A stretch of 64,000 nt of DNA from positions 3,281,973 to 3,345,972 of the forward strand of contig CBDFIJ010000004.1 of the NCBI GenBank assembly GCA_965248055.1, in the 5' to 3' direction. Origin of the DNA: Candidatus Multivoradales bacterium. GTDB lineage: Bacteria > Acidobacteriota > Thermoanaerobaculia > Multivoradales > JAHEKO01. This document shows, piece after piece, positions 3 to 13,326 of this stretch (its first letter is position 1; each line of letters opens with the position of its first letter). The notes under the pieces were generated by a model. That model did no database searches, had not been told where the DNA came from, and saw only the letters and a program-made list of their open reading frames with translations. The translations under genes were made by a program, and so were the position numbers.

Positions 3-1499
3 GCGCTTGATAACCGCTCCTTCGGCGGCGCCCAGGTGTCGCGCACCTTCTACGCCCGCGGCCAAACCGGGCAACAACTGTTGCTCGGCGCCTATCAAGC
101 TCTGGCACGGCAGATCGGCTTGGGCAAAGTCGAGATGCACACCCGCACCGAGATGCTCGACGTTATTACTCATGAAGGCCAAGCCTGCGGCATCGTCACC
201 CGCGACATGGTGGGCGGCGAGATCCGTTCTTGGACCGCCGACGCGGTGGTGCTGGCCACCGGTGGCTACGCCAACGTTTTCTATCTCTCGACCAACGCCA
301 AGGGCTGCAACGTCACCGCGGCTTGGCGCGCGCACCGTCGCGGCGCCCTGTTTGCCAACCCTTGTTATACCCAGATTCATCCCACCTGCATTCCCCAGGC
401 GGGCGACTACCAGTCCAAGCTCACCTTGATGAGTGAATCTTTAAGAAACGACGGTCGCATTTGGGTACCCAAGAACAAGGACGAAGACCGCAAACCAGTC
501 GATATTCCGGAAGACCAGCGCGACTACTTCCTCGAACGCCGCTATCCGGCCTTCGGCAACCTGGTGCCCCGCGACGTCGCCTCCCGCGCCGCCAAGACCA
601 TCTGCGATGAAGGTCACGGTGTCGGCGCCAGTGGCCGCGGCGTCTACTTGGACTTTGCCGATGCCACCAACCGGCTCGGGCGCGACGCCATCGAAGATCG
701 TTACGGCAACCTGTTTGACATGTACCACGACATCACCGGTGAGGACCCGTACAGCTCGCCGATGCGCATCTACCCGGCACCGCACTACACCATGGGCGGC
801 CTGTGGGTGGACTACAACCTGATGACCACCGTGCCCGGCCTCTACGCCATCGGCGAATGCAACTTCTCAGATCACGGTGCCAATCGTCTGGGGGCTTCAG
901 CACTGATGCAGGGGCTGGCCGACGGCTACTTCGTACTGCCCAACACCATCGGCAACTATCTCTCTGAGCGCATGGGCGAAGAAGTGATCTCAACCGACCA
1001 CGACGCCTGCAAGGCGGTCGAGGCCGACGTCCGTGAACGCACCGAGCGCTTGCTCTCGGTCAACGGCAGCCGCTCGGTGGATTCCTTCCACCGCGAGCTG
1101 GGCAAGATCTGCTGGGACTTGATCGGCATGTCCCGTGACAGTGAAGGCCTCAGAGAAGCCTTGGAAAAGATCCCCACTCTGCGCGAGGAGTACTGGCAAA
1201 ACGTCAAAGTGCTGGGCAACAACCAGTCGTTCAACCAGGCCCTAGAAAATGCTGGACGCGTCGCCGACTTCTTTGAACTTGCCGAACTCATGGCACGCGA
1301 CGCCTTAGACCGCGACGAATCCTGTGGCGCCCACCTGCGGTTGGAACACCAGACCCCCGGAGGCGAGGCTGAGCGCAACGACCAGGACTACTCCTACTCA
1401 GCCGCCTGGGAATACACCGGCCCCGGCAACGAACCCAACCTGCACAAAGAACAGCTCGAATTCGAGAACGTACATCTGGCTAGCAGGAGCTACAAGTGA
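3..1499 (+). CDS. sdhA: Succinate dehydrogenase/fumarate reductase flavoprotein subunit (5' end lies outside the window)
   Basis: Motifs [44 protein letters not shown] and ESCGAH; followed by the Fe-S subunit gene. Confidence 0.95.
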
Positions 1500-1857: not shown

Positions 1858-2586
1858 ATGCGCCTAACCCTCGAAATCTGGAGACAACAAAACGCTGACG
1901 CCCAGGGCGGCATCGTCCAGTACCAACTCAACGACGTCTCATCCGACATGTCGTTTCTGGAAATGCTGGACGTCCTAAACGAGCAACTCACCGAACGCGG
2001 CGAAGACCCGGTCGCCTTTGACCACGACTGCCGCGAAGGCATCTGCGGCATGTGCGGCGTGATGATCAACGGCCAGGCCCACGGCCCGCTGCCCGAAATG
2101 ACCACCTGCCAACTACATATGCGCCATTTCTCCGACGGCGACACCATCCGCATCGAGCCCTGGCGCTCCGCCGCCTTCCCGGTCGTGCGCGATCTAGTGG
2201 TCGATCGCGGTCCCTTTGATCGGATCATCGAATCCGGCGGCTACATCTCCATCGGCACCGGTGCTGCCCCCGACGCCAACTTGATCCCGGTCCCCAAAGA
2301 CATCGCCGACCAAGCCATGGACGCCGCCGAATGCATCGGCTGCGGCGCCTGCGTCGCCCAGTGCCCCAATGGCGCCGCCCAGCTCTTCACTGCTGCCAAG
2401 GTCTCCCATCTCGGCCTGCTACCCCAAGGCCAGCCCGAACGCTCTCGCCGAGTGCAGAGCATGGTCGAAACTATGGAGGAGTACTTCGGCTCGTGCTCGA
2501 ATTACGGGGAGTGCGAGGCAGTGTGTCCGAAGGGGATTTCGCTGGAGTTTATTGCCAGGATGAATCGGGATTGGGTGCGGGGGTAG
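1858..2586 (+). CDS. sdhB: Succinate dehydrogenase/fumarate reductase iron-sulfur subunit
   Basis: Cys clusters [22 protein letters not shown] and [12 protein letters not shown]. Confidence 0.96.
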
Positions 2587-2783
2587 GTCGGAACCTGACT
2601 CGGAAGCGTGGAATGTCGGGCTACTTCCGAGCACCGCAAATCAGTCAGAAATACTTCCCCTCCGCTTGATAGCAGTATTCAACTGCGCCATACCTCGACG
2701 CGCTGCCTGTCGCGATCAGGCACCCACCTGTTTCGATGCGATACGATTGAAGCATCCGGGGACGGTGTTAAGAGGCTTTTCCA

Positions 2784-3098
2784 ATGTCACATGCCAAGAC
2801 CAAGCAGGATGTCCTGCAACGACTTCGCGCGAATACACCGCGCATTCGTGCGTTGGGCGTGCTGCGCATCGGGCTTTTTGGTTCCTTCACGCGCGATCAA
2901 CAGAATGAAGGAAGCGACGTCGACCTGATCGTGGAATTCGAGCCGGAGCGCAAGAGTTTCGACTCGTTTATTCAACTTTCGTTTTTCCTGGAAGAGCTTC
3001 TTGGTAGACGGGTCGACCTCGTGACCACTCAAGCGCTTAGCCCCTACATTGGTCCCCATATTCTTGCCGAGGCGGTCTATGCTGACCTCGCCGCTTGA
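2784..3098 (+). CDS. Minimal nucleotidyltransferase (MntA-like antitoxin)
   Basis: GLFGSFTR...SDVDLIV MNT signature; 104 aa; overlaps the downstream HEPN gene. Confidence 0.9.
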
Positions 3099-3450
3099 CT
3101 ACCTACGCCATATCCGTGATGAGGCGAGTTATCTGCTGGATCGCTCCGGTAGCATGGGTAAGGAAGAGTTCTTGCGCGACGAGACGGTGAAACGCGCTTT
3201 CGTTCGGAGCATCGAAGTCATTGGCGAGGCCGCCAAGAAAGTTCCGGCAGAACTGAGAGAGCGGCACACCCAGATCGACTGGCGCGCCATGTCCGGCATG
3301 CGGGACCGTCTAATTCACGGCTATTTCGGTGTCGACTACGAGATCGTCTGGGACGTAGTGGCGAACAAGGTGCCGGAGCTTCATGAGTACATCAACACCA
3401 TCCTGGAGGAAGGCTCGGACCTGCCGTCGGGGGAGGAGCGAGCGCCCTGA
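3079..3450 (+). CDS. DUF86/HepT-like HEPN ribonuclease toxin
   Basis: EVIGEAAKK...[24 protein letters not shown] contains the HEPN Rx4H motif; ATG at 3079. Confidence 0.9.
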
Positions 3451-3452
3451 GA

Positions 3453-3578
3453 TTGGTCGAGACCATAGAGGAGTACTTCGGCTCCTGCACAAACTACGGC
3501 GAGTGCGACGCGGTGTGTCCGAAGGGGATTGCTTTGGAGTTTATTGCCAGGATGAATCGGGATTGGGTGCGGGGGTAG
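3453..3578 (+). repeat. Orphan copy of the sdhB 3' end (126 bp, ~89% identical to 2461-2586)
   Basis: Translates [41 protein letters not shown]; 14 mismatches by manual count; last 44 nt identical. Confidence 0.95.
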
Positions 3579-3586
3579 GGGGTTAG

Positions 3587-3826
3587 GTGTCTCCCACCGT
3601 TCGGCGCATCGGACCGTACCGTTTCTTTTTCTACAGCAACGAAGGCACCGAGCCTTCACATATCCATGTTCAGCGCGATCATCGCGTGGCTAAGTTTCGG
3701 CTAGATCCGGTGCGATTGGCGCGTACCGGGCACTTTCCAGATCACGAAATTCGTGAGGCCGAGGCGTTAGTGCGAGATAATGAAGCCGAACTATTGGAGG
3801 CATGGCATGAGTTCTTCGGTCGTTGA
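3587..3826 (+). CDS. DUF4160-family small protein (predicted toxin)
   Basis: PTV...YRFFFYSNE..EP.HIHV....AKF.L...WHEFF pattern; paired with a DUF2442-like gene. Confidence 0.85.
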   Translation: MSPTVRRIGPYRFFFYSNEGTEPSHIHVQRDHRVAKFRLDPVRLARTGHFPDHEIREAEALVRDNEAELLEAWHEFFGR

Positions 3827-4061
3827 GAAAATTGCCCTGGCGAGCAGGGTAGAAGTTACCGCAACCGATTTGCGGGTGAACTTGGTCGATGGGCGGCAGA
3901 TTGTGGTGCCCCTCTCGTGGTTCCCACGATTGGAGCAGGCGACGCCGGAAGCCAGGAAGAACTGGGAGTTGCTTGGCGGTGGCGAGGGAATTCACTGGCC
4001 GGATGCTGATGAGGATTTGAGTGTGGCAGGGTTGTTGGGTGGGTCGGTGGTTGCTGGATGA
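3807..4061 (+). CDS. DUF2442-family protein (predicted antitoxin)
   Basis: L.DGR.I.VPL.WFPRL..AT...R.NWEL.GGGEGIHWP..DEDLSV.GLL. Confidence 0.88.
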   Translation: MSSSVVEKIALASRVEVTATDLRVNLVDGRQIVVPLSWFPRLEQATPEARKNWELLGGGEGIHWPDADEDLSVAGLLGGSVVAG

Positions 4062-4072
4062 GCCTAGCGATC

Positions 4073-4234
4073 CAAGGCCAACCTGAACGCACTCGCCGGG
4101 TGCAAAACATGGTCGACACCATGGAGGAGTACTTCGGCTCCTGCTCGAACTACGGTGAGTGTGAGGCGGTGTGTCCGAAGGGGATTTCGCTGGAGTCTAT
4201 TGCCCGGATGAATCGGGATTGGGTGCGGGGGTAG
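4073..4234 (+). repeat. Second orphan copy of the sdhB 3' end (162 bp, ~91% identical to 2425-2586)
   Basis: Translates [53 protein letters not shown]; 15 mismatches by manual count. Confidence 0.95.
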
Positions 4235-4240
4235 GGGTAG

Positions 4241-4927
4241 ATGGCGGTCGCGTTCGACCGTGAGTTGGCGAGGCCAGTGTATGAAGATCTTGCCCACCTG
4301 CAAGAGAATTGGAACCAGCAGGCTACTGACGCAGTTCTGCGTCGCGAGAGTACAGTTCTGCGGCGCTTGCTTGTTGACGGGCATTTGTCTCGCGTCGCGA
4401 GTAGCATCGGCATCAAGTATCGCCTCCAAGTAGGCTGTCTTTGTGAGTTCTATACAACGGAGCGGTTAAAGGGCTATGAATATTGGATGGCCCCTTATGT
4501 AAAGTACAAGGGCGCGGCAGTTCAAATGGCGTCTATACGGAACCGGGCGGTAACTGAAAATGAGCTCAAAATCGAGCATGAGGCTCGAAAGGCGTTGGCT
4601 GATAAGTCGAAGGCGATCAGCGTACCGAAGTACCTGCAGTTGCCAGCCATGGTTGTTGAGGGAATCATAGTTAGGCATCAAGGTGTAATTCAGTTTGTAT
4701 GCAACAAGCTGGGCGGGGCACACTACGATCGGAGTCGTAAGAGGCAACGAGATCAACAATTTGTTCTTCTGGACAAGGTTCGGTCCGGCGATTTTCAGGT
4801 GCTGGGAAAGGATGCAGTGTACTTACAGTTGTTAGGTGTCGGCCAGGCAATCGCTACGAATCAAATCACTTATCGGGTGATGTCCCGGCTGAGGAGTATG
4901 GGAATCGAACAACCTAGCAAGGATTGA
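4241..4927 (+). CDS. Hypothetical protein (third cargo gene, lower GC)
   Basis: 228-aa ORF starting 6 nt after the sdhB-copy stop; contains CNKLGGAHYD. Confidence 0.75.
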   Translation: MAVAFDRELARPVYEDLAHLQENWNQQATDAVLRRESTVLRRLLVDGHLSRVASSIGIKYRLQVGCLCEFYTTERLKGYEYWMAPYVKYKGAAVQMASIRNRAVTENELKIEHEARKALADKSKAISVPKYLQLPAMVVEGIIVRHQGVIQFVCNKLGGAHYDRSRKRQRDQQFVLLDKVRSGDFQVLGKDAVYLQLLGVGQAIATNQITYRVMSRLRSMGIEQPSKD

Positions 4928-5423
4928 CTATATCGAGTAGATGTCAGCCGAAATTAGGTGCCACCCGAATAAATGAGATTTGAACGGTTGTACAAAGCAT
5001 CGTGAAACTCGGACCTCTGGGAATAGGTGCCACTTATTAGGCGGCGTTATGTCAAGGGGTACATCTTTTCTTTCCGGGTGGGGGGCGTCCCGGTATTGAG
5101 TGATCAAAGAAAGGCAGCGCTAGTTTTTTGGGTCTCATTAAGTAGGAGTCGATGACGCTCCAGCCACTCATCAGGATCTAGGTAGTCGAGTTATCAGTCC
5201 TCGGTACCCCAGGCAGTATCGTGCCCCAGAAACCCGTTGGTCTCGATTCCGTTTCCATGAGAAGGGATTCAGTCGCATGGTTTTCGAGCTAGTAGCTCGA
5301 TCCAGCCCCTGGTTGGTTGACGGAGTCGTGCGCCACCGGTGCAAGTAAGAGAGATCGAGGCCGCTTCCACTCAGATGATTGGTTATTAACACAGCATCTT
5401 TCTGGTTGGCGGCCTCGATCTCA

Positions 5424-6440
5424 TTAGCCAAACAGCCTTTCGGGCTGGTAAGGCGCTTGATCCCTCATCATGAAGTAAGCAGCGCGTGCGAGCTTGTGGG
5501 CAAGAGCCCTGGTGGCGAGAAGGGAGCCGGATCGAGATCGTTTCTTGTCATGCCATTTGCGTGCTTTGGGCTGCCAACGGACGGCAAAGTGTGCGGCTTC
5601 GTGAAATGCCCAGGACAGGTAGGGGTTGCCGTTCTTGCGCAGTCCATGTCCTTTGATCCGTTGATTGGAGTTTCTCTCGGCTTTGACCAGTCGGCAGTAG
5701 GAGACGTAGTTACCCACTTTGGGGAAGCGATTGATATCTCCGGTCTCATATTGGATGGTCGCAGCAAGAGTCGCTCCGATGCCAGGGATGGAGGTGAGCA
5801 AGCGGTAGCTGTCTTCCAGAACTGCCTGCTCGCTAATGGTCTTTTCGATTATCTCGATTTGTTCATCGAAGGCCTCGATCATCGCCAGCGAAGCGATCAT
5901 CGAGAGTTGGTCATTTGGATCGTCGATCCAGTTGCTGATGTCTTTGACGGTGACCTTGTTCAAGGCGTTGGCAGACAGTCGCTTGGCTGTGGTGCGTTCA
6001 AGGACATTGCGCAGGCTGAGTTTATTGGCCGAGCGCTGGCGAACCAGCTGAGTGCGTCGACGCAGAAGATCCCGTACCGCTCGTTTTTCCGGTGGGTAGA
6101 TCCACCCCGTGGGCAAGATCCCGAGTCTCAGCATGTGGGCCAGCCACCGGGCGTCGGTTTTGTCGTCGGTATGCTTGAGACCTTGATACTGCTGGGCTGC
6201 CAGAGTGTTGACCAAATGCACCTTGTAGCCCGAGTCCTTAAGACCATCGACCAGCCAATACCAGTTGAAGGTCGATTCAACCGCAATGCCCTCCATCTTT
6301 CCAGCATAAGGTTCCAGGCCCGAGCGGATGGATTCAAGGTCGTTGCGGTAACGCTTTGCCTTAACCATTTGGTCAGACTCGTCAATAACCGCCAAATAGC
6401 TGTTGTTTGCGTGAAGGTCGATCCCGGCGTACAGTCCCAT
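5424..6440 (-). CDS. IS110-family transposase/recombinase
   Basis: GIDLH, AVEST.NWYW, HTDDKTDARWLA (DEDD RuvC-like) and SIPGIG...SY..L.....S. Confidence 0.93.
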   Translation of the reverse strand: MGLYAGIDLHANNSYLAVIDESDQMVKAKRYRNDLESIRSGLEPYAGKMEGIAVESTFNWYWLVDGLKDSGYKVHLVNTLAAQQYQGLKHTDDKTDARWLAHMLRLGILPTGWIYPPEKRAVRDLLRRRTQLVRQRSANKLSLRNVLERTTAKRLSANALNKVTVKDISNWIDDPNDQLSMIASLAMIEAFDEQIEIIEKTISEQAVLEDSYRLLTSIPGIGATLAATIQYETGDINRFPKVGNYVSYCRLVKAERNSNQRIKGHGLRKNGNPYLSWAFHEAAHFAVRWQPKARKWHDKKRSRSGSLLATRALAHKLARAAYFMMRDQAPYQPERLFG

Positions 6441-6458
6441 TGGGTGCTCCTTTGTGGT

Positions 6459-7822
6459 GGATGTGTCCCGAATCTTGTGGAAATTGGTATTTGGCGTAGC
6501 GTCTCCCGCGGTCAGGTTTAGTTGATTCTAGTCCTACGCGGCTGCTTGACGGTCAAGCATCCGGTACAAGTCTTGGTAGCCGTTGATGCGGTGCATCCTG
6601 ATCTGACCGAAAGCGACGAGTCCCCAGAGCAAGGTAACACCCGCTGCCTCAGTCGAGAATGAGCCTTGGGTCTTGGTACGGCGCCGAAACTCACGGTTGA
6701 GATTCTCCAGCGCGTTGGTGGTCCTTGTGGATCGCCACAATGATCTCGGTAAATCGTCGAAAGTGATCAGTTCCATCCCAGCCTCTTGGAAGCTCCTGGC
6801 TACTGCGGGCACCAGCTTGGACCACTTGGTAACAAAGATTGAATAACTCTCTCGGGCCTCCAGGGCATCTTGGGCTCGCAGCACTTGATCCCAGTCTCGC
6901 TTGAGCTCACCATGAGCATGCTTAGGGCAATGCTTCTTCAGGTTTTCCCACTTGTGCTGGATACAACGCTGGACTTTGGCCTCTGGCCAAGCCCTGACTC
7001 CTACCGCCAAACCCTTGTGGCCGTCTGAGACCAGGAGATGCGGTGCTTTCAAGCCCCTGCGTTTAAGATCTTCAATCAACCACTTCCAGTGACTGCCTGC
7101 CTCACTGGCTGCTAACCGTAGAGCTACCAGGACTTTGGTGCCATCTTCTCTTACCCCCAGAGCAGCCAACACCGGAGCTGACACCACGCGCCGAGCAAGC
7201 CGCACTTTCAAGTGAAAGCCATCAAGAAACAAGATCGGGTAGCTTTCCTCAGACAGGCCTCGCTCACTCCAACGGGCAAAGTGCTCCTTCAAACGCGATA
7301 CCACCCGAGACACAGCGCTCTTGGATAGATGCTCCCTGCCCAGCAGTGGAGTCAAGGCCTTCTTGATCCGACGGCTGTTGGCCCCTGCTAGGTAGCAGCC
7401 GAGAATCGCTTCATCCACCTCTCGGGTGCGCCGCTGGTAGCGCTCAACAAGATGGCTTTGAAACTCCTCAGTGGATCCATCTTGGCCTACTACCCGACCA
7501 CGAGGAATTCGCAGTTGCCGGGATCCGTATCGGGTCGTGATCGTCCGCTCTTGTTTGCCGTTGCGATAGCCCGAGCGCTCACCTGAACGCTCGTACGCAA
7601 CACAACCCAATGCGTCAGCAAGCTCTCCTTCTAGAACTATTTCGATTGCTTCCCGGATACGGTGCTGAAGCTTTGACTGGATATCTTGCTGGAAACGAGA
7701 TGATTCCGGTCTCTGATTGGTACTCTTGTCCATGGCGTAGCCTCCTTTCGCCTACTCGGCGATGGGTTTTGACTACCGGAGGTTACGCCTTTCTCAATTT
7801 CCACAACAATCGGGACGGATCC
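6459..7822 (-). mobile_element. IS256-family element, complete
   Basis: Imperfect terminal IRs GGATgtGTCCCGAaTcTTGTGGAAATTG / GGATccGTCCCGAtTgTTGTGGAAATTG; 8-bp target duplication TTTGTGGT at 6451-6458 and 7823-7830. Confidence 0.95.
6534..7733 (-). CDS. IS256-family (Mutator) transposase
   Basis: YRNG...IPR.R, LFLDG, VSDGHKGL, QRCIQHK and RTTNALENLNREFRRRTK. Confidence 0.95.
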   Translation of the reverse strand: MDKSTNQRPESSRFQQDIQSKLQHRIREAIEIVLEGELADALGCVAYERSGERSGYRNGKQERTITTRYGSRQLRIPRGRVVGQDGSTEEFQSHLVERYQRRTREVDEAILGCYLAGANSRRIKKALTPLLGREHLSKSAVSRVVSRLKEHFARWSERGLSEESYPILFLDGFHLKVRLARRVVSAPVLAALGVREDGTKVLVALRLAASEAGSHWKWLIEDLKRRGLKAPHLLVSDGHKGLAVGVRAWPEAKVQRCIQHKWENLKKHCPKHAHGELKRDWDQVLRAQDALEARESYSIFVTKWSKLVPAVARSFQEAGMELITFDDLPRSLWRSTRTTNALENLNREFRRRTKTQGSFSTEAAGVTLLWGLVAFGQIRMHRINGYQDLYRMLDRQAAA

Positions 7823-7962
7823 TTTGTGGTTGGCAGTGGATACTTCGGTAAGCCAAAGCTTGTCACTGCGGAGGAGCACCTATCTGAGGACTCCCCTTTC
7901 TGCCAACATGAGTGAGACACTTCCCCGTTCAACAATTAATGTAGGGCGGACGGAGGTAAATC

Positions 7963-8448
7963 ATGTTGAAGATAGATACAAATCGAAGTCTGGTTGGTTC
8001 GAGGGAGAGATCCTCGGCCTTACCGGAGGGGATCGAGGAGCGTAGCGACGAGAGCCCGGTAGGTGAGGCCGTCGCGCTCGACCCGGAGACCCTGGAGAAG
8101 CCCTATCGACGGCGTTTTAGCGCCGCGTACAAGCTTGGCATTCTGGAGCAGGTTGATGCCTGCACCGCAGCGGGTGAAGTAGGAAGGTTGCTGCGTCGCG
8201 AAGGGCTTTACTCCTCACATTTGGCAAGCTGGCGCAAAGCGCGGCGCGAAGGCTCCCTGGCTGGACTTTCCAAGCGTCGCGGGCGCAAGGCAAAGCCGGT
8301 CAATCCCCTGGCCAAGAAAGTCCAGCAGCTTGAGCGAGAGAATGCGCGCCTTAGCGGTGAGCTTGAGAAAGCTCACTTGATTCTATATGTCCAGGGAAAA
8401 GTTGCCGGGCTGCTGGGATTGAGCTTCGACGACGGGAAAAGTTCCTGA
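7963..8448 (+). CDS. IS3-like transposase OrfA (HTH)
   Basis: RRRFSAAYKL.IL...GRLLRREGLYSSHLASWRK; joined to orfB by a TGATG overlap. Confidence 0.85.
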   Translation: MLKIDTNRSLVGSRERSSALPEGIEERSDESPVGEAVALDPETLEKPYRRRFSAAYKLGILEQVDACTAAGEVGRLLRREGLYSSHLASWRKARREGSLAGLSKRRGRKAKPVNPLAKKVQQLERENARLSGELEKAHLILYVQGKVAGLLGLSFDDGKSS

Positions 8449-9452
8449 TGGCCGCAGTAGAGCTATCGAGCACGGTCGGTGTGAAGCCGGCGTGGCAAGC
8501 TCTCGGGGTTGCACGGGCCACTTACTACCGTCGCCAGAAGCCATCCAATGGGCGAAAGCAGCCCCGACCAACTCCCGCCCGAGCGCTATCGAGCTATGAA
8601 CGCGACCGAGTACGCGGACTTCTATGCTCGCCACGATTCGTCGATCGAGCCCCCGCTGAGGTGGTTGCCACCTTGCTCGATGAAGGCACTTATCATTGCT
8701 CTGAACGCACGATGTATCGCATTCTGGCTGCCGACAAAGCAACCAAGGAGCGACGCAACCAATTGCGCCGTCCACGCTATGCCAAGCCGGAGCTGGTGGC
8801 GACAGAGCCCAATCAAGTTTGGTCCTGGGATATCACTAAACTCAAAGGCCCAAAGACTTGGACTTGGTATTACCTCTACGTCTTACTCGATATCTTCAGC
8901 CGCTATGTGGTGGGCTGGATGGTGGCATCAAGAGAAAGCAGTGCCCTGGCCAAGCGATTGATTCAAGATAGTTGTATCAAGCAGGGCACTGCCCCAGGAG
9001 AGCTCATCCTGCATAGTGACCGAGGGTCACCAATGACCGCCAAAGGCACTGCCCAGCTCCTGGCTCAGCTCGGCGTCACTCGATCACTTTCCCGACCCAA
9101 GGTCCCGGACGACAATCCCTTTTCAGAAGCCCAGTTTAAGACCCTGAAATACCATCCGGGATTCCCCAGTCGTTTCGGCTCCATCGAAGACGCGCTCAGC
9201 TTTTGCCGACCTTTCTTTACTTGGTACAACACCGAGCATCGCCACAGCGGGCTCTCGATGATGACCCCGGAAGATGTCCACTACGGACGCACTGTGCAGG
9301 TCCTCGACCACAGAACCAGTGTTCTGGCTGATGTTTTTCTCAATAAACCCGAGCGCTTCGTACGCGGCTGCCCGAAGCCAAAACCATTACCCGACGCTGT
9401 CTGGATCAACCCACCAGATCGGGATCGATCATCGCTTGGCGATGCTCACTAA
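8448..9452 (+). CDS. IS3-like DDE transposase OrfB (rve)
   Basis: PNQVWSWDIT, LDIFSRYVVGW, HSDRGS and DNPFSEAQFKTLK. Confidence 0.93.
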   Translation: MAAVELSSTVGVKPAWQALGVARATYYRRQKPSNGRKQPRPTPARALSSYERDRVRGLLCSPRFVDRAPAEVVATLLDEGTYHCSERTMYRILAADKATKERRNQLRRPRYAKPELVATEPNQVWSWDITKLKGPKTWTWYYLYVLLDIFSRYVVGWMVASRESSALAKRLIQDSCIKQGTAPGELILHSDRGSPMTAKGTAQLLAQLGVTRSLSRPKVPDDNPFSEAQFKTLKYHPGFPSRFGSIEDALSFCRPFFTWYNTEHRHSGLSMMTPEDVHYGRTVQVLDHRTSVLADVFLNKPERFVRGCPKPKPLPDAVWINPPDRDRSSLGDAH

Positions 9453-9492: not shown

Positions 9493-9795
9493 CTATCGCC
9501 TTCTGCCGCTCGTTTTTCCGCTGGTACAACACCCAGCACCGTCACGCCGGCATCGCCATGCTGACACCCGAAGATGTCCACTACGGCAAGGCCGACCACA
9601 AGCTCAAGATCCGTCAACTGGCCCTTGACCAAGCTTGGCGAAACAACCCACAGCGATTTGTCCGTGGAAGACCGACCGTTCAGCTATTACCGAGGGCCGT
9701 CTGGATCAACCCACCCAAACATCAGCGCACCAAGGAGGTTGTCCCGATTCACTAATTAATTCTGCCAACTGTCTCAAAGTTGTTGACAGGTTCCG
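9493..9795 (+). pseudogene. 3' remnant of a second, related IS3-like element with its right end
   Basis: FFRWYNTQHRHAGIAMLTPEDVHYG...VWINPP is paralogous to the OrfB C-terminus; ends TGTCTCAAAGTTGTTGACA-GGTTCCG. Confidence 0.88.
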
Positions 9796-10867
9796 CTTTT
9801 GGACGCTGACTTGGGCCCGTCTGATCTTTGGATCGTCGTCACGAAGCCATCGGTGAGGGTGAACTCGGGTTCGGGCAGGCCCGCGGCAACGCATTTCCGG
9901 ATCATGTCGCGAGTGCCGGTGCCCATGCGCTCGATGTATTTGGTGAGGTAGAGCGGTTCGGCGAGCAGCGGGTTACCGGGAATGGAACTGTGAGGCTGGC
10001 GCAGCTTGTCTAGGGTGAGCGCTGCGGGGAGAGTGCCGGGATTCCAGACCTCCAGCCGGTCTGTGAAGAGCATGACCTGGACGCTGCCATTGCTGTTGTA
10101 GTCGCGGTGGGCGACGGCGTTGACAATGGCTTCGGCGACCACATCACGCGGAATTTCGTATTCGACGGGCGCCTGCGGTCCTTGCACCCGGGTGCCGACG
10201 CTGAGGTTGATCTTGGACATCACGAAGTCGATAGCCTGATCCACCAGCTCGAAGGCAGTGCCCTTGTAGACCTGGTGGGAGGGAATGGGCTTGGCGGAAG
10301 GGGAAAGTTGCGCGCCTTGCGGGCGCGGGGCACGAAGCGGGCGATGTGCTCTGGATCGAGGTCGTCGAGGGAGGCCTTGCGAGCCGCGCGGGCGTCCCAA
10401 GGGGCACGGTTGAGACTACCGGTTTCCTCAAGGTAGTCGACGAGACTGGCATAGACGTCGGGCAGCAGGTCCGTGGATTGCTGGAAGCGTCGGCGCACGA
10501 GTTGGTTGCCAACTTCACGAACCAGCGTCTGCATTTCCGGGTGCTTGTTTTCGTCACTAGCGCCTTTGACGAAGATCAGTCGGGTCTTGCCGAGGTCGGT
10601 GGCATGGTTGAACTCTCGGTGGGTAGGCGAGAGCCCGTCCGGGTTCTCCCATCCATACTCATCGCCGAACAGGCCGAGGTAAACATCGCACTTTGCGACT
10701 TGATCGAGGTAGACCTCGTCTGGCTGACGGTCTGAAGCCGGAACATCGCGCTCAAACAAGAATGCCTCGAAGAAACGTCGTAGCAACGGATCGTTGGAGA
10801 GATACTCTGCCAGTGCTTTCCGCTCTTCGGCGAACTCCTTCTGCACACTGCTGATGAAGATCTTCAT
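9796..10867 (-). pseudogene. DUF4062 plus ATP-binding (RecG-C/HATPase_c_4-like) protein, disrupted
   Basis: N-terminal KIFISSVQKEF.EER; C-terminal EAIVNAVAHRDY...DRLEVWNPG...IERMGTG lies in another frame after ~10295; cut at the 3' end by the IS remnant. Confidence 0.8.
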
Positions 10868-12428
10868 GCGGTGATACCGATCTTTTCCAGAATCTTCCGC
10901 AGGTCCTTGTCGGTCTTCTGGGCCTCGCCCTCAATCGCATTCAGTTCCGCGACGATCTCCACAATCGGCCGATAGGTCTCGGCGTCGGCTGTGTGGATGT
11001 AGCGGCTGGGGGATATGTTGTAGTCGGTTTTTTTCAGCTTTGCATGATCGACGATGCGGCTGAGTTTTTCTTCTTCCTTCCAGTTGGCGAGGACATCGGC
11101 GATGCGGTCGATCCCCTCGGGCGGGAGGAAGTTCTTGGGGTCTCCCTTTTTGAAGACCTGACTGGCGTTGACGAGCAGGACCTTACCTGCCCGAGTCTTG
11201 GGCTTGTCCCGGTTGAGAAAGAGGACGATGCCCGGGGCGGGAGTGTTGTAGAACAGGTTCTCGGGCAGGTAGAGGACGCTCTCGATGAGGTCGTGGTCGA
11301 CGAACCACTGGCGGACGGTTTTTCCTTGTCGGTATTCGCATTACCCGAACCGCGGGAGGCGGCGCCGGTGTCGAGCACCACGGCGGCGCGGCCCTCGGGC
11401 TTGAGGCTGGCGTGTATGTGTTGCACCCATCCCCAGTCGGCCGAGGATTTACCAGGGAAGCCGGCCCCGGCGGGGAAGCGGTCTAGTTCGTCAGCGTCGT
11501 AGTCTTTCTCAGAGTACTCCTTCTGGTTCCACATCGGGTTGGCGACTACGCGGTCGAAGGTGCGCAGTTTGCCGCGCCTGCGGAACTTGGGATTCTTGAA
11601 GGTGTCGCCGATCTCGATCTGACCCTCCATGTCGTGGATGATCATGTTCATGTTGGCCATGGCCCAGGTTTCGGGGATGTATTCTTGCCCGTAGAGTTTG
11701 AGCGGGGCGAAAGTACGCTTCTTCTGGCCCTTGGTCTTCGATTCCATGGCGATCTCGCACTTGATAAGCAGACCGCCGGAACCGCAGCATGGGTCGTAGA
11801 TATCCATGCCGGGCTCGGGAGCCAGCACCTTAGCCATGATCTCGCCGACTTCGGGTGGGGTATAGAACTCGCCGGCGCTCCTGCCGCTGCCTTCAGCAAA
11901 TTTGCGGATCAAGTATTCGTAGCTCTTGCCGATGATGTCGGCTTCCACGTCGTCGAGTCCCAGGCGCTTGGTGCTGATGGCCTCGATGAGGTTGGAGAGG
12001 CGGTCGTCGTCGAGATCACGCTGGCCGTGGGTAGTGGCGTTGAAGTCAACGCGGTCGATGATGCCCTGCAGCAGCGGGTTTTGCTTGGCAATCGCCCGCA
12101 TGTGGCTGGTGACGCCTTCGCCGATCTTGTCTGAGAGCTTACGGATGACCGACCAAACGGGCTGCTCAGGGTCCTTCGGTACCAGTGGCAGATAAAAGCG
12201 GACCAGCTTGTGGTCGGCTTTGGCGAGTAGGAAGGCCTTGTCGCGCGAACCGACCTCGGCGGCGATGCGGTTTATCTCGTCGTCAAAAACGTCGCACAGG
12301 CGCTTGGTGAAGACAAGCGGCAGGATGTAGTCCTTGTACTTGGGCGCGTCCTTAGCCCCGCGGATAGAGCAGGCGGCATCCCAGATCCAGGATTCGAGGG
12401 ATTTGACCTTGTCGCTGCTCTTGCCCAT
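10864..12428 (-). pseudogene. hsdM: Type I restriction-modification methyltransferase subunit M with a single-base frameshift
   Basis: GEFYTP, DPCCGSGG, NPMW; the HsdM-like C-terminus (LYLPENLFYNT...YNISPSRYI) continues in a shifted frame from the A5 run at 11319-11323 to TGA at 10864. Confidence 0.88.
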
Positions 12429-12498: not shown

Positions 12499-13326
12499 TT
12501 AGGCTACCGGAGGAGCGTCAGCTTCTTCCAGCGCCTTGCCGAATCTGGGTCTCCACCAGAGTTCGATCGGTCCCAGCAGGACATACGCCGAGCCAATCAC
12601 GAACAGGGTGACGGAGGGTTTGGCGAGAATGGCGACGAAGCAGATTGCTGCGAAGGTGAGGAAGCGATTGCTGGATTGGAGCGAGATCTCTTTTCCGGTG
12701 CGATAGGGGATGCCGCTGACCATCAGCAGGGCCAGGGTGACCAGGCCGAGACCGATGACATAGGCGGGTACGTTGGTTTCGATTCCCGACTCTTGCAGGG
12801 TGCCAGCAAACCAAGCGGTGGTGGCAACCATTCCGGCTGCGGCTGGGCTGGGGAGTCCTTGAAAGCGATTCTTGTAGCGACCGGCGGAGACGTTGAAGCG
12901 CGCCAAGCGCAGGCCGGCGCAGACCACGTAGGCAAACGCCACCACCCAGCCGCTCCAGCCCAAGTCGCTCAGCCTGCCGAAGTGAAAGGTAAGCAAGGCA
13001 GGGGCAACGCCGAAGGACACGGTGTCGGCGACTGAGTCGTACTCCGCTCCGAAGCGGGTTGCGACTCCCTGGGCCCGCGCCACTCGGCCATCCAGCAGGT
13101 CACAAGCCATAGCGAGCCAAATCGCGATCACCGCCTGATCGAGGTCGCCCTGGGCTGAACGCACGACGGCAAAGAATCCCGCCGCCAGATTGGTGGTGGT
13201 TAATATGTGGGGGATCAGCGTCGCTGGGTTACGTCGTGGGTGTTCGGATCGATCATGAGGCGTTGCGGGTTTGATATCAGCTCGCTTGGTGCCCTCAGTA
13301 CCAGCCCGGTGCGAAATCAAAGTCAT
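12499..13326 (-). CDS. pssA: CDP-diacylglycerol-serine O-phosphatidyltransferase
   Basis: DLLDGRVAR...FGAEYDSVADTVSFGVAP and LRLARFN; adjacent to psd. Confidence 0.92.
   Translation of the reverse strand: MTLISHRAGTEGTKRADIKPATPHDRSEHPRRNPATLIPHILTTTNLAAGFFAVVRSAQGDLDQAVIAIWLAMACDLLDGRVARAQGVATRFGAEYDSVADTVSFGVAPALLTFHFGRLSDLGWSGWVVAFAYVVCAGLRLARFNVSAGRYKNRFQGLPSPAAAGMVATTAWFAGTLQESGIETNVPAYVIGLGLVTLALLMVSGIPYRTGKEISLQSSNRFLTFAAICFVAILAKPSVTLFVIGSAYVLLGPIELWWRPRFGKALEEADAPPVA

Follow-up and report, generated by a model that had tools for sequence, protein, structure and literature searches.

Arrays formed by C-terminal displacement at the rhs and cdiA genes have reportedly been described by Jackson and colleagues in 2009 and by Poole and colleagues in 2011, insertion with long target duplication is said to have been reported by Nobusato and colleagues in 2000, and the cassette arrays of chromosomal integrons are said to have been treated by Mazel in 2006. 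For the effector-immunity arrays of type VI secretion systems (T6SS) and for Rhs orphans, homology-facilitated illegitimate recombination (HFIR) has been proposed, according to the available part of that paper (Kirchberger et al., 2017; PMC5361080). The insertions with long target duplication, as they are presented in the accessible text of Furuta, Abe and Kobayashi (2010; PMC2853133), lack mobility genes and occur mostly in competent species; the inserts are shorter than 20 kb, and they are bounded by direct repeats of more than 30 bp (46–423 bp), the pairs of which are 96–100% identical. In Escherichia coli K-12, the prophage e14 is located in the 3' end of icd and it leaves behind the pseudogene icdC (Hill et al., 1989, as related in the available portion of PMC13626634). 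The present work concerns a locus in a Candidatus Multivoradales bacterium of the phylum Acidobacteriota (assembly GCA_965248055.1, contig CBDFIJ010000004.1, positions 3,281,973–3,345,972), where an intact sdhB gene is followed by three units of small cargo genes that are separated by two headless copies of the sdhB 3' end. The whole stretch of 64,000 nucleotides that was analysed, which comprises the last 64 kb of a 3.35-Mb contig, will be referred to as the window.

Based upon the results described below, this array probably arose as foreign DNA was added, at least twice in succession, to the 3' end of sdhB, in events that were anchored by homology and took place without an integrase (3'-end displacement). 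We regard the locus as a scar left by recombination, of a type that is known in general, and not as a new cassette machine. What is unusual about it is that a respiratory housekeeping gene serves as the anchor, that two events are stacked upon each other, that the cargo consists of toxin-antitoxin genes and that the open reading frames (ORFs) form a tightly coupled chain.

Anatomy and Probable Origin of the Displaced sdhB Ends

A repeat search of the window revealed a single family with three direct copies, at positions 2424–2587, 3416–3579 and 4072–4235 (the last at 91%). The first of these is the end of the working gene, and in the copy at 3416–3579 the homology is limited to the final 126 nt. 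A BLAST search against the whole genome was concordant with the alignment and gave sdhB-end matches of 164 nt at 91% and of 126 nt at 90% identity. The three copies agree fully over their final 30 nt (GGATGAATCGGGATTGGGTGCGGGGGTAGG; 0.00 matches expected, based upon 100 shuffles). The order and common orientation of the units given in a preliminary description of this DNA (viz. sdhB, an MNT/HEPN pair, a tail, a DUF4160/DUF2442 pair, a second tail and the gene for a 228-aa protein) are borne out by the ORFs, the Pfam matches and the repeats (Table 1). The spacings that it listed, of 8, 6, 2 and 11 nt with tails of 126 versus 162 bp, are likewise all correct on reading of the sequence. The DUF4160 gene, with a GTG start, begins after a gap of 8 nt from the stop codon of tail 1, and the ATG of the 228-aa gene after a gap of 6 nt from that of tail 2. 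On their other sides, tail 1 is separated by 2 nt from the HEPN stop codon, whereas the homology of tail 2 starts (at 4072 or 4073) 10–11 nt after the DUF2442 stop codon, its open frame beginning within an ATGA overlap upon the latter. From MNT to the 228-aa gene, successive ORFs either overlap or are separated by at most 8 nt, so that they form a chain.

The differences between the copies provide information regarding the origin of the tails. Tail 1 differs from the working sdhB end at 14 of 123 nt, with codon positions 1, 2 and 3 accounting for 4, 0 and 10 of these changes, respectively; tail 2 differs from it at 15 of 159 nt (2, 2 and 11). The sdhB gene of the sister species (G001), whose orthologue of the protein is 95% identical, also differs from the sdhB end of the genome analysed here (G000) at 15 of 159 nt (1, 1 and 13). 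The working sdhB, the two tails and the gene of the sister species are approximately equidistant from each other (87–93% identity), and the frames of both tails are open. Due to this third-position bias, the open frames and the equal distances, most of the divergence appears to have arisen within working genes of separate lineages, and judged from this pattern each tail looks like the end of an sdhB allele that once functioned in a diverged lineage. The comparison, in which the sister species provides a single outgroup allele and the sample is small, agrees with displaced ends of diverged alleles rather than with a local duplication. The homology of all of the copies ceases at the stop codon, which is also the point where the synteny between G000 and the sister species ends.

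As repeats of this kind could be created by an assembler, the raw data were checked in the Logan short-read contigs of four public runs (X1–X4). All four runs are from one sample, which is probably the source of the genome assembly, and they contain 95–97% of the sampled words of the window. Contigs covering positions 2558–3564, 3552–4235 and 4208–5055 show 0 differences from the window; all three are present in X1, X3 and X4, and X2 contains only the first and the third. The joint between HEPN and tail 1 is crossed by the first of these contigs and that between DUF2442 and tail 2 by the second. The depths of sdhB and of the three cargo units were 50/57/63.5/65 in X1, 68/70/70/71.5 in X3 and 31/30/30/28.5 in X4. 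The short-read contigs break in the 30-nt core, so that the placement of the first two cargo units relative to each other is taken from the original assembly. Because both joints are crossed and the depths are equal, the array belongs to one genome and it is not a chimera of strains, an objection which the preliminary description had itself raised and which is now largely answered.

No recombinase is encoded near the array. A Pfam scan of 59 ORFs of the window (16 plus a further 43 of at least 120 aa) detected no tyrosine or serine recombinase in any of them, in agreement with the earlier claim; three DDE/DEDD transposases lie just downstream (5424–9452). The G000 genome contains seven Phage_integrase (tyrosine) and six Resolvase (serine) matches, all of which are distant from the sdhB locus. 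Additionally, in 29 relatives the 1.5 kb that follow sdhB contain 40 ORFs of at least 110 aa, none of which is an integrase. The bottom strands of the two tails, folded as single strands, gave z values of -0.09 and -1.44, and of 200 shuffles 82 and 16, respectively, were at least as stable; the tails therefore do not look like attC sites. An Rfam search of four loci (L009, L061, L063 and L080) yielded nothing relevant. A promoter scan found two promoter-like sites, both within ORFs, where 1.7 were expected, and it detected none upstream of the cargo starts or in the 196-nt spacer behind sdhB; the terminator-like sites were weak and they were also within ORFs. As the ORF chain is tightly coupled, the array may plausibly make use of the sdh promoter, as was suggested earlier.

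TABLE 1. Features of the sdhB array and of the adjoining part of the window.
Feature	Position in window	Strand	Evidence or remark
sdhA/frdA flavoprotein subunit, 3' part	3–1499	+	Truncated by window start; identity read from translation
Intact sdhB, iron-sulfur subunit, 242 aa	1858–2586	+	Pfam Fer2_3, E 1.4e-23; Fer4_8, E 4e-10
Repeat copy 0, last 164 nt of working sdhB	2424–2587	+	Includes 30-nt core, 2558–2587
Spacer from sdhB stop to MNT start, 196 nt	2588–2783	+	No homology to downstream DNA of G001
Cargo A gene 1, MNT-type nucleotidyltransferase antitoxin, 104 aa	2784–3098	+	Pfam NTP_transf_2, E 6.9e-13; PADLOC PDC-S09, E 1e-33
Cargo A gene 2, HEPN (HepT-like) RNase toxin	3049–3450	+	Pfam HepT-like, E 3.2e-28
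Displaced sdhB tail 1, 126 nt	3453–3578	+	Open frame of 41 codons; 88.6% identical to sdhB end
Cargo B gene 1, DUF4160 protein, 79 aa, GTG start	3587–3826	+	Pfam DUF4160, E 7.9e-18
Cargo B gene 2, DUF2442 protein, overlaps DUF4160 end	3780–4061	+	Pfam DUF2442, E 7.2e-22
Displaced sdhB tail 2, about 162 nt	4072–4234	+	Open frame 4058–4234; 90.6% identical to sdhB end
Cargo C, 228-aa protein of unnamed family, ATG start	4241–4927	+	No Pfam family
Multi-copy element directly behind array	about 4975–5230		Contig depth 3–8 times that of flanks; loose ends 5023–5228
IS110-type insertion sequence	5424–6440	-	Pfam
IS256/Mutator-type insertion sequence	6534–7733	-	Pfam
IS3-type orfA/orfB	7963–9452	+	Pfam
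Defence-island remnant: HATPase_c_4 protein, DUF4062 protein, hsdM methylase	9774–12428	-	Pfam, PADLOC

Copies of Gene Ends in Related Genomes and at Other Genes

The sister species contains a single sdhB without such cargo. In order to extend the comparison, 45 genomes of the family were analysed (the tallies include G002), the genus itself being represented by only two genomes. The sdhB end is present in 42 of these 45 genomes, and more than one copy of it was found in two, G000 and G020, the latter from another genus. In G020, the contig with the complete sdhB ends 77 nt past the stop codon, and a second contig starts 131 nt ahead of a 290-nt tail which is 88.6% identical to the sdhB end of that genome. 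This tail is followed by a SpoIIE/GAF phosphatase gene and a Pyr_redox_2 gene. A Pyr_redox_2 gene also follows sdhB in three other loci (L017, L019, and L026), and a SpoIIE/GAF gene does so in a fourth (L033). The displaced tail of G020 adjoins the native flank of sdhB, which agrees with what the displacement model predicts. Serial addition, with sdhB being rebuilt each time and the older tail and cargo being pushed downstream, had been put forward in the preliminary description, and it is supported by the divergence of the tails, by the single sdhB of the sister species and by the tail in G020. The comparison of relatives that had been recommended there revealed the displaced tail of G020 but no variation in cargo number. 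Fifteen metagenome loci that matched a 19-nt core pattern were rejected as chance matches, since none of them contained sdhB or any similarity to the window.

A fourth and decayed remnant of sdhB is located on the minus strand 95 kb upstream of the gene (G000:C4:3188800-3189010; L060 8801–9010). In this remnant, residues 65–78 are fused to residues 186–242, and the frame is interrupted by two frameshifts and a stop codon. It is flanked by an SDR gene and by a convergent gene for a QatC-like PP-loop protein; no insertion sequence or inversion end was found beside it, and from its sequence it looks like an older relic. Beyond these four, a BLAST search of the entire genome detected no further sdhB-like copy in G000. 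The sdhB copies vary in their 5' limits, extending over 126 and 162 nt in the array and 290 nt in G020, and back to residue 65 in the remnant. This variation is more in keeping with illegitimate joints than with a fixed att site.

The preliminary description had also recommended a scan of this genome for other housekeeping genes followed by copies of their own 3' ends, and the footprint was found at four or more other genes. G000 was compared with itself for copies of gene ends and the ORFs at the candidate loci were then read; a sensitive screen flagged 10 of 272 local repeat pairs, and four loci were read. The flagged pairs at C4:87819, 1057443, and 2153640, some of which are paralogue-like, were left out of the count. 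Behind an aldo-keto reductase gene, a 251-aa cargo begins 6 nt past the stop codon and is followed by a 65-nt tail at 92% identity. A Rieske oxygenase gene is followed by 2.6 kb of inserted DNA, in which two ORFs are encoded on the opposite strand, and then by a 134-nt tail at 94%. In the third case, hsdM (G000:C4:858317-861611, minus strand), a 506-aa cargo overlaps the hsdM stop codon by GTGA and precedes a 70-nt tail at 79%. The 506-aa gene has, by eye, a DUF4062-like start, and a similar hsdM-DUF4062 pair is present in the window (10220–12428). Lastly, in an M64 peptidase gene (G000:C4:1685900-1689500; L059) it is the 5' end that is duplicated, over 129 nt at 91.5%; a strongly diverged paralogue of the upstream gene (139/145 aa) stands before each of the two copies, one of these paralogues being placed between the copies. 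The presence of this footprint at unrelated genes, and at one 5' end, indicates that the mechanism is general and that it is not tied to 3' ends. Together with the restriction of extra sdhB tails to two of 45 family genomes, it also argues against the earlier suggestion that sdhB is the dedicated landing pad of an integron-like system.

Proposed Course of Events and Alternative Explanations

The recombination steps, the order of arrival and the co-transcription that we infer from this anatomy are as follows. The incoming DNA would be derived from a diverged relative and it would contain the sdhB end of the latter together with the small gene or genes just downstream of it. On its upstream side, it would pair with the resident sdhB by RecA-dependent homologous recombination. 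Its far end would be joined inside or at the resident sdhB end, either by an illegitimate joint, as in HFIR, or, if the donor cargo was already located between two copies of an sdhB end, by a second homologous crossover in the short tail. After each event, sdhB would still be functional but would have an imported end, the new cargo would stand behind it, and the old headless tail with its cargo would be shifted downstream. The 228-aa gene would then have arrived first, the DUF4160/DUF2442 pair next and the MNT/HEPN pair last. A donor with its cargo between two sdhB ends, and hence two ordinary crossovers, would explain the tidy boundaries as an inherited feature. The addictive nature of the toxin-antitoxin cargo and the tight stop-start chaining would presumably favour retention and expression of the units. 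The competence genes comEC and dprA are present in G000; as most control genomes also carry both, the support from them is weak.

A number of observations weigh against this proposal. Both joints between a cargo and a tail are no more than 11 nt away from a stop codon, and the next cargo begins only 6–8 nt past the stop of each tail. These boundaries are tidier than random illegitimate joints would be, so that the cassettes may have been pre-formed or compactness may have been selected for. Further, the identity of the three copies over 30 nt is as expected of a site-specific core, although constraint can also account for it, since the gene of the sister species differs at only 2 nt in this region. 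Random illegitimate joints do not fully explain the combination of tidy boundaries and an identical core. Codon positions 1 and 2 also hold 8 of the 29 tail differences (about 28%) versus 2 of 15 between the two working genes, and this excess suggests that some of the divergence arose in place, after displacement. Classical HFIR usually deletes DNA of the recipient, and a duplication requires a sister chromosome, a circular intermediate or a donor flanked by repeats. Neither a donor nor a relative with another cargo number was found (the genus comprising two genomes, and a metagenome scan yielding no relative of sdhB), and natural competence of the organism is conjectural.

The tidy boundaries and the core that is identical in all three copies could also result from tandem accretion, in which integrase-borne elements targeted the 30-nt sdhB end and brought a surrogate gene end with them. 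The two units would in this case be integrase-less remnants that are mobilisable in cis and can be moved in trans, and one of the seven genomic tyrosine recombinases could have acted in this manner. The largely third-position divergence of the tails is also matched by that of icd and icdC in the e14 anatomy, as far as it is presented in the available part of the source (PMC13626634). However, as noted above, neither the window nor the ORFs downstream of sdhB in the 29 relatives encode an integrase, and no sdhB-like copy that could represent an attP site is present in the genome beyond the four listed. The units are merely 0.5–0.9 kb long and contain just a toxin-antitoxin pair, every tail differs in length, and a separate integrase would be needed for each of the unrelated genes, and for the 5' end, where the footprint is present. 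We consider this explanation unlikely.

The compactness of the co-oriented and apparently promoterless units, with their stop-start chain (an ATGA overlap at 4058–4061 and gaps of 2, 8, and 6 nt), could also mean that they are self-sustaining cassettes without any recombinase, which is the strongest version of the idea in the preliminary description. A tail and its cargo would loop out by RecA recombination from one tail to another; as circles or fragments, the units would be taken up by other cells and enter any related sdhB homologously, the tails acting both as homology arms and as translational couplers. A similar life cycle has been proposed for restriction-modification units, according to the accessible text of Furuta et al. 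(PMC2853133), and of 29 loci from other phyla that contain a relative of the 228-aa gene, three have long direct repeats on both sides of it. However, no circle, joined form, empty or alternative junction or second occurrence of any unit was seen, none being listed in the contig data of the four runs, which cannot reveal rare variants. The cargo genes lack a paralogue in the genome, the closest relative of HEPN that 300 genomes of the order contain is only 65% identical, and extra tails are confined to 2 of 45 family genomes. For this locus such a cycle appears quite unlikely.

A very unlikely explanation, in our view, is an insertion in place with long target duplication, where a staggered break or replication slippage duplicated 126–162 nt of the same genome and the copies diverged afterwards. 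The anatomy fits this published class, as far as the available text describes it (PMC2853133), and the related genome has a single copy. The published repeat pairs from the same portion of that text are, however, nearly identical (417/423 and 388/397), in contrast to 89–91% here. The 8 of 29 differences at codon positions 1 and 2 also compare with about half that would be expected there under free drift, this being a rough estimate with no fitted model, and the tails are no closer to the resident sdhB than is the gene of the sister species. Lastly, that the assembler strung together alternative sdhB-downstream alleles of co-existing strains is extremely improbable and already largely refuted: although the sample is a community and the 30-nt core interrupts every short-read contig, both cargo-to-tail joints are crossed, which is impossible in simple alleles of sdhB plus one cargo, and the depths in X1, X3, and X4 are equal instead of being fractions that sum up.

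Cargo Genes, Surroundings and Comparison with Described Systems

The MNT/HEPN and DUF4160/DUF2442 genes are small and adjacent or overlapping, and their Pfam matches exceed the curated cut-offs; they are predicted to form type II toxin-antitoxin pairs. From the sequence, the true start of HEPN is likely the TTG at 3094, which overlaps the MNT stop codon, and DUF2442 may start at an inner ATG (3807). None of the cargo genes has a paralogue in the G000 genome. Relatives of HEPN are present in 181 of the 300 genomes of the order.

The 228-aa ORF is a genuine gene whose family has no name. For its protein, 20 distant homologues were identified, none of which is named or contains a Pfam domain, and an NKLGGAHxD motif is invariant in their alignment. 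The AlphaFold model of the protein is confident (pLDDT 88.4), and it has no match in PDB at E <= 0.001 by Foldseek and none in PADLOC. HEPN toxins formed the top three rows of a VIA-align comparison, but their Z values of 4.4–5.0 are within noise for helical proteins. Relatives of the protein occur in 32 loci with a patchy distribution across many phyla. The gene is located between long direct repeats in three of the 29 loci checked (L061, L063, and L080). In L080, from a metagenome-assembled genome of Didemnitutus, a 185-nt repeat at 88.6% identity ends at the start codon of the gene and recurs about 100 nt past its stop codon. L061 contains two repeat pairs that share a GTTAGAT motif (2890–2966, 3890–3952, 5292–5368, and 6638–6700). 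In this AT-rich genome, the repeats are intergenic and they lie just upstream of successive ORFs in a cassette-like layout; no integrase was found within 130 kb, and the repeats do not fold as hairpins any better than shuffles. In L063 there are four 92-nt repeats. These observations provide a lead, and not proof, that members of this family may often travel in repeat-flanked units.

The region around the array contains several other features. The gap between sdhA and sdhB is filled by three copies of a 43-nt REP-like palindromic repeat (1522–1564, 1595–1637, and 1773–1815), which are 81–88% identical, and a similar unit stands after the sdhB stop codon in the sister species. Behind the array, the multi-copy element and the insertion sequences are followed by a defence-island remnant (Table 1), and housekeeping genes (pssA, psd) are back from position 12499. 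The HATPase_c_4 protein (9774–10400), which adjoins the insertion sequences, is weakly matched in PADLOC by defence proteins of the pAgo-associated and SIR2 types, and it may be part of a broken defence system. Two further IS256/Mutator-type transposase genes are located at the very end of the contig (61773–63969), and it is probably because of them that the assembly stops there.

The manner in which toxin-antitoxin and defence genes move between genomes without mobility genes is poorly understood. The locus described here represents a clean and doubly stacked case, where homology to the conserved end of a housekeeping gene is the sole visible means of entry, and it indicates that essential respiratory genes can have their ends swapped repeatedly for foreign DNA with their function being kept. 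If the pattern is general, headless gene ends could serve as markers for dating and ordering acquisitions in uncultured bacteria and for finding cargo that is actively spreading. A broader possibility, which we regard as doubtful, is that selfish small genes, such as those for toxin-antitoxin pairs and the NKLGGAHxD family, spread as recombinase-free cassettes, with the copy of a conserved gene end acting as a RecA homology arm and as a translated coupler into a housekeeping operon. If this were true, the stacked tails would be the visible trace of a general and overlooked route of gene mobility. In the available portions of the literature on long target duplication, HFIR and C-terminal displacement, no such arrays at housekeeping genes with toxin-antitoxin cargo were found.

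Of the described systems, the rhs, cdiA and T6SS arrays have several features in common with the locus. In these arrays, as in the present one, headless pieces of the 3' part of a gene are stacked behind its intact copy, and every piece has a separate gene downstream of it. The most recent unit is the one beside the intact copy, the pieces are derived from other lineages, and no dedicated recombinase is involved. The resemblance to Rhs/CdiA orphan modules that was noted earlier stands. However, in the rhs, cdiA and T6SS arrays the displaced part is a variable toxin tip and the cargo is the cognate immunity gene, whereas at sdhB the displaced part is conserved, being the end of a respiratory housekeeping gene, and the cargo is functionally unrelated to it. 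The insertions with long target duplication are similar in consisting of small addictive units with long direct repeats of variable length and no mobility genes, in that some of the repeats overlap the 3' end of a gene, and in that the site is empty in a related genome; the sizes of the inserts and repeats found here are within the range of that class. They differ in that they are single events that involve restriction-modification genes, in contrast to the two stacked events with toxin-antitoxin cargo, and the repeats of the present locus are about 10% diverged (88.6% and 90.6% identity), in a coding-type pattern, rather than nearly identical.

In the case of e14, based upon the available part of the source (PMC13626634), the target is likewise a housekeeping gene, of the tricarboxylic acid cycle, whose working end is provided by the insert and whose earlier end is left downstream as a C-terminal pseudogene. 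However, the e14 prophage is 15 kb long, encodes an integrase and excises precisely, whereas the inserts at sdhB are 0.5–0.9 kb long and contain no recombinase. The likeness to an integron, which had also been suggested, holds only for the compact layout: integron cassettes, as discussed in the accessible text of PMC5361080, are compact, co-oriented and apparently promoterless, they often carry toxin-antitoxin genes, and the newest is located at the entry point. At sdhB, in contrast, there is no adjoining intI, no attI and no hairpin-forming attC, and the separators between the cargo units are pieces of a protein-coding gene.

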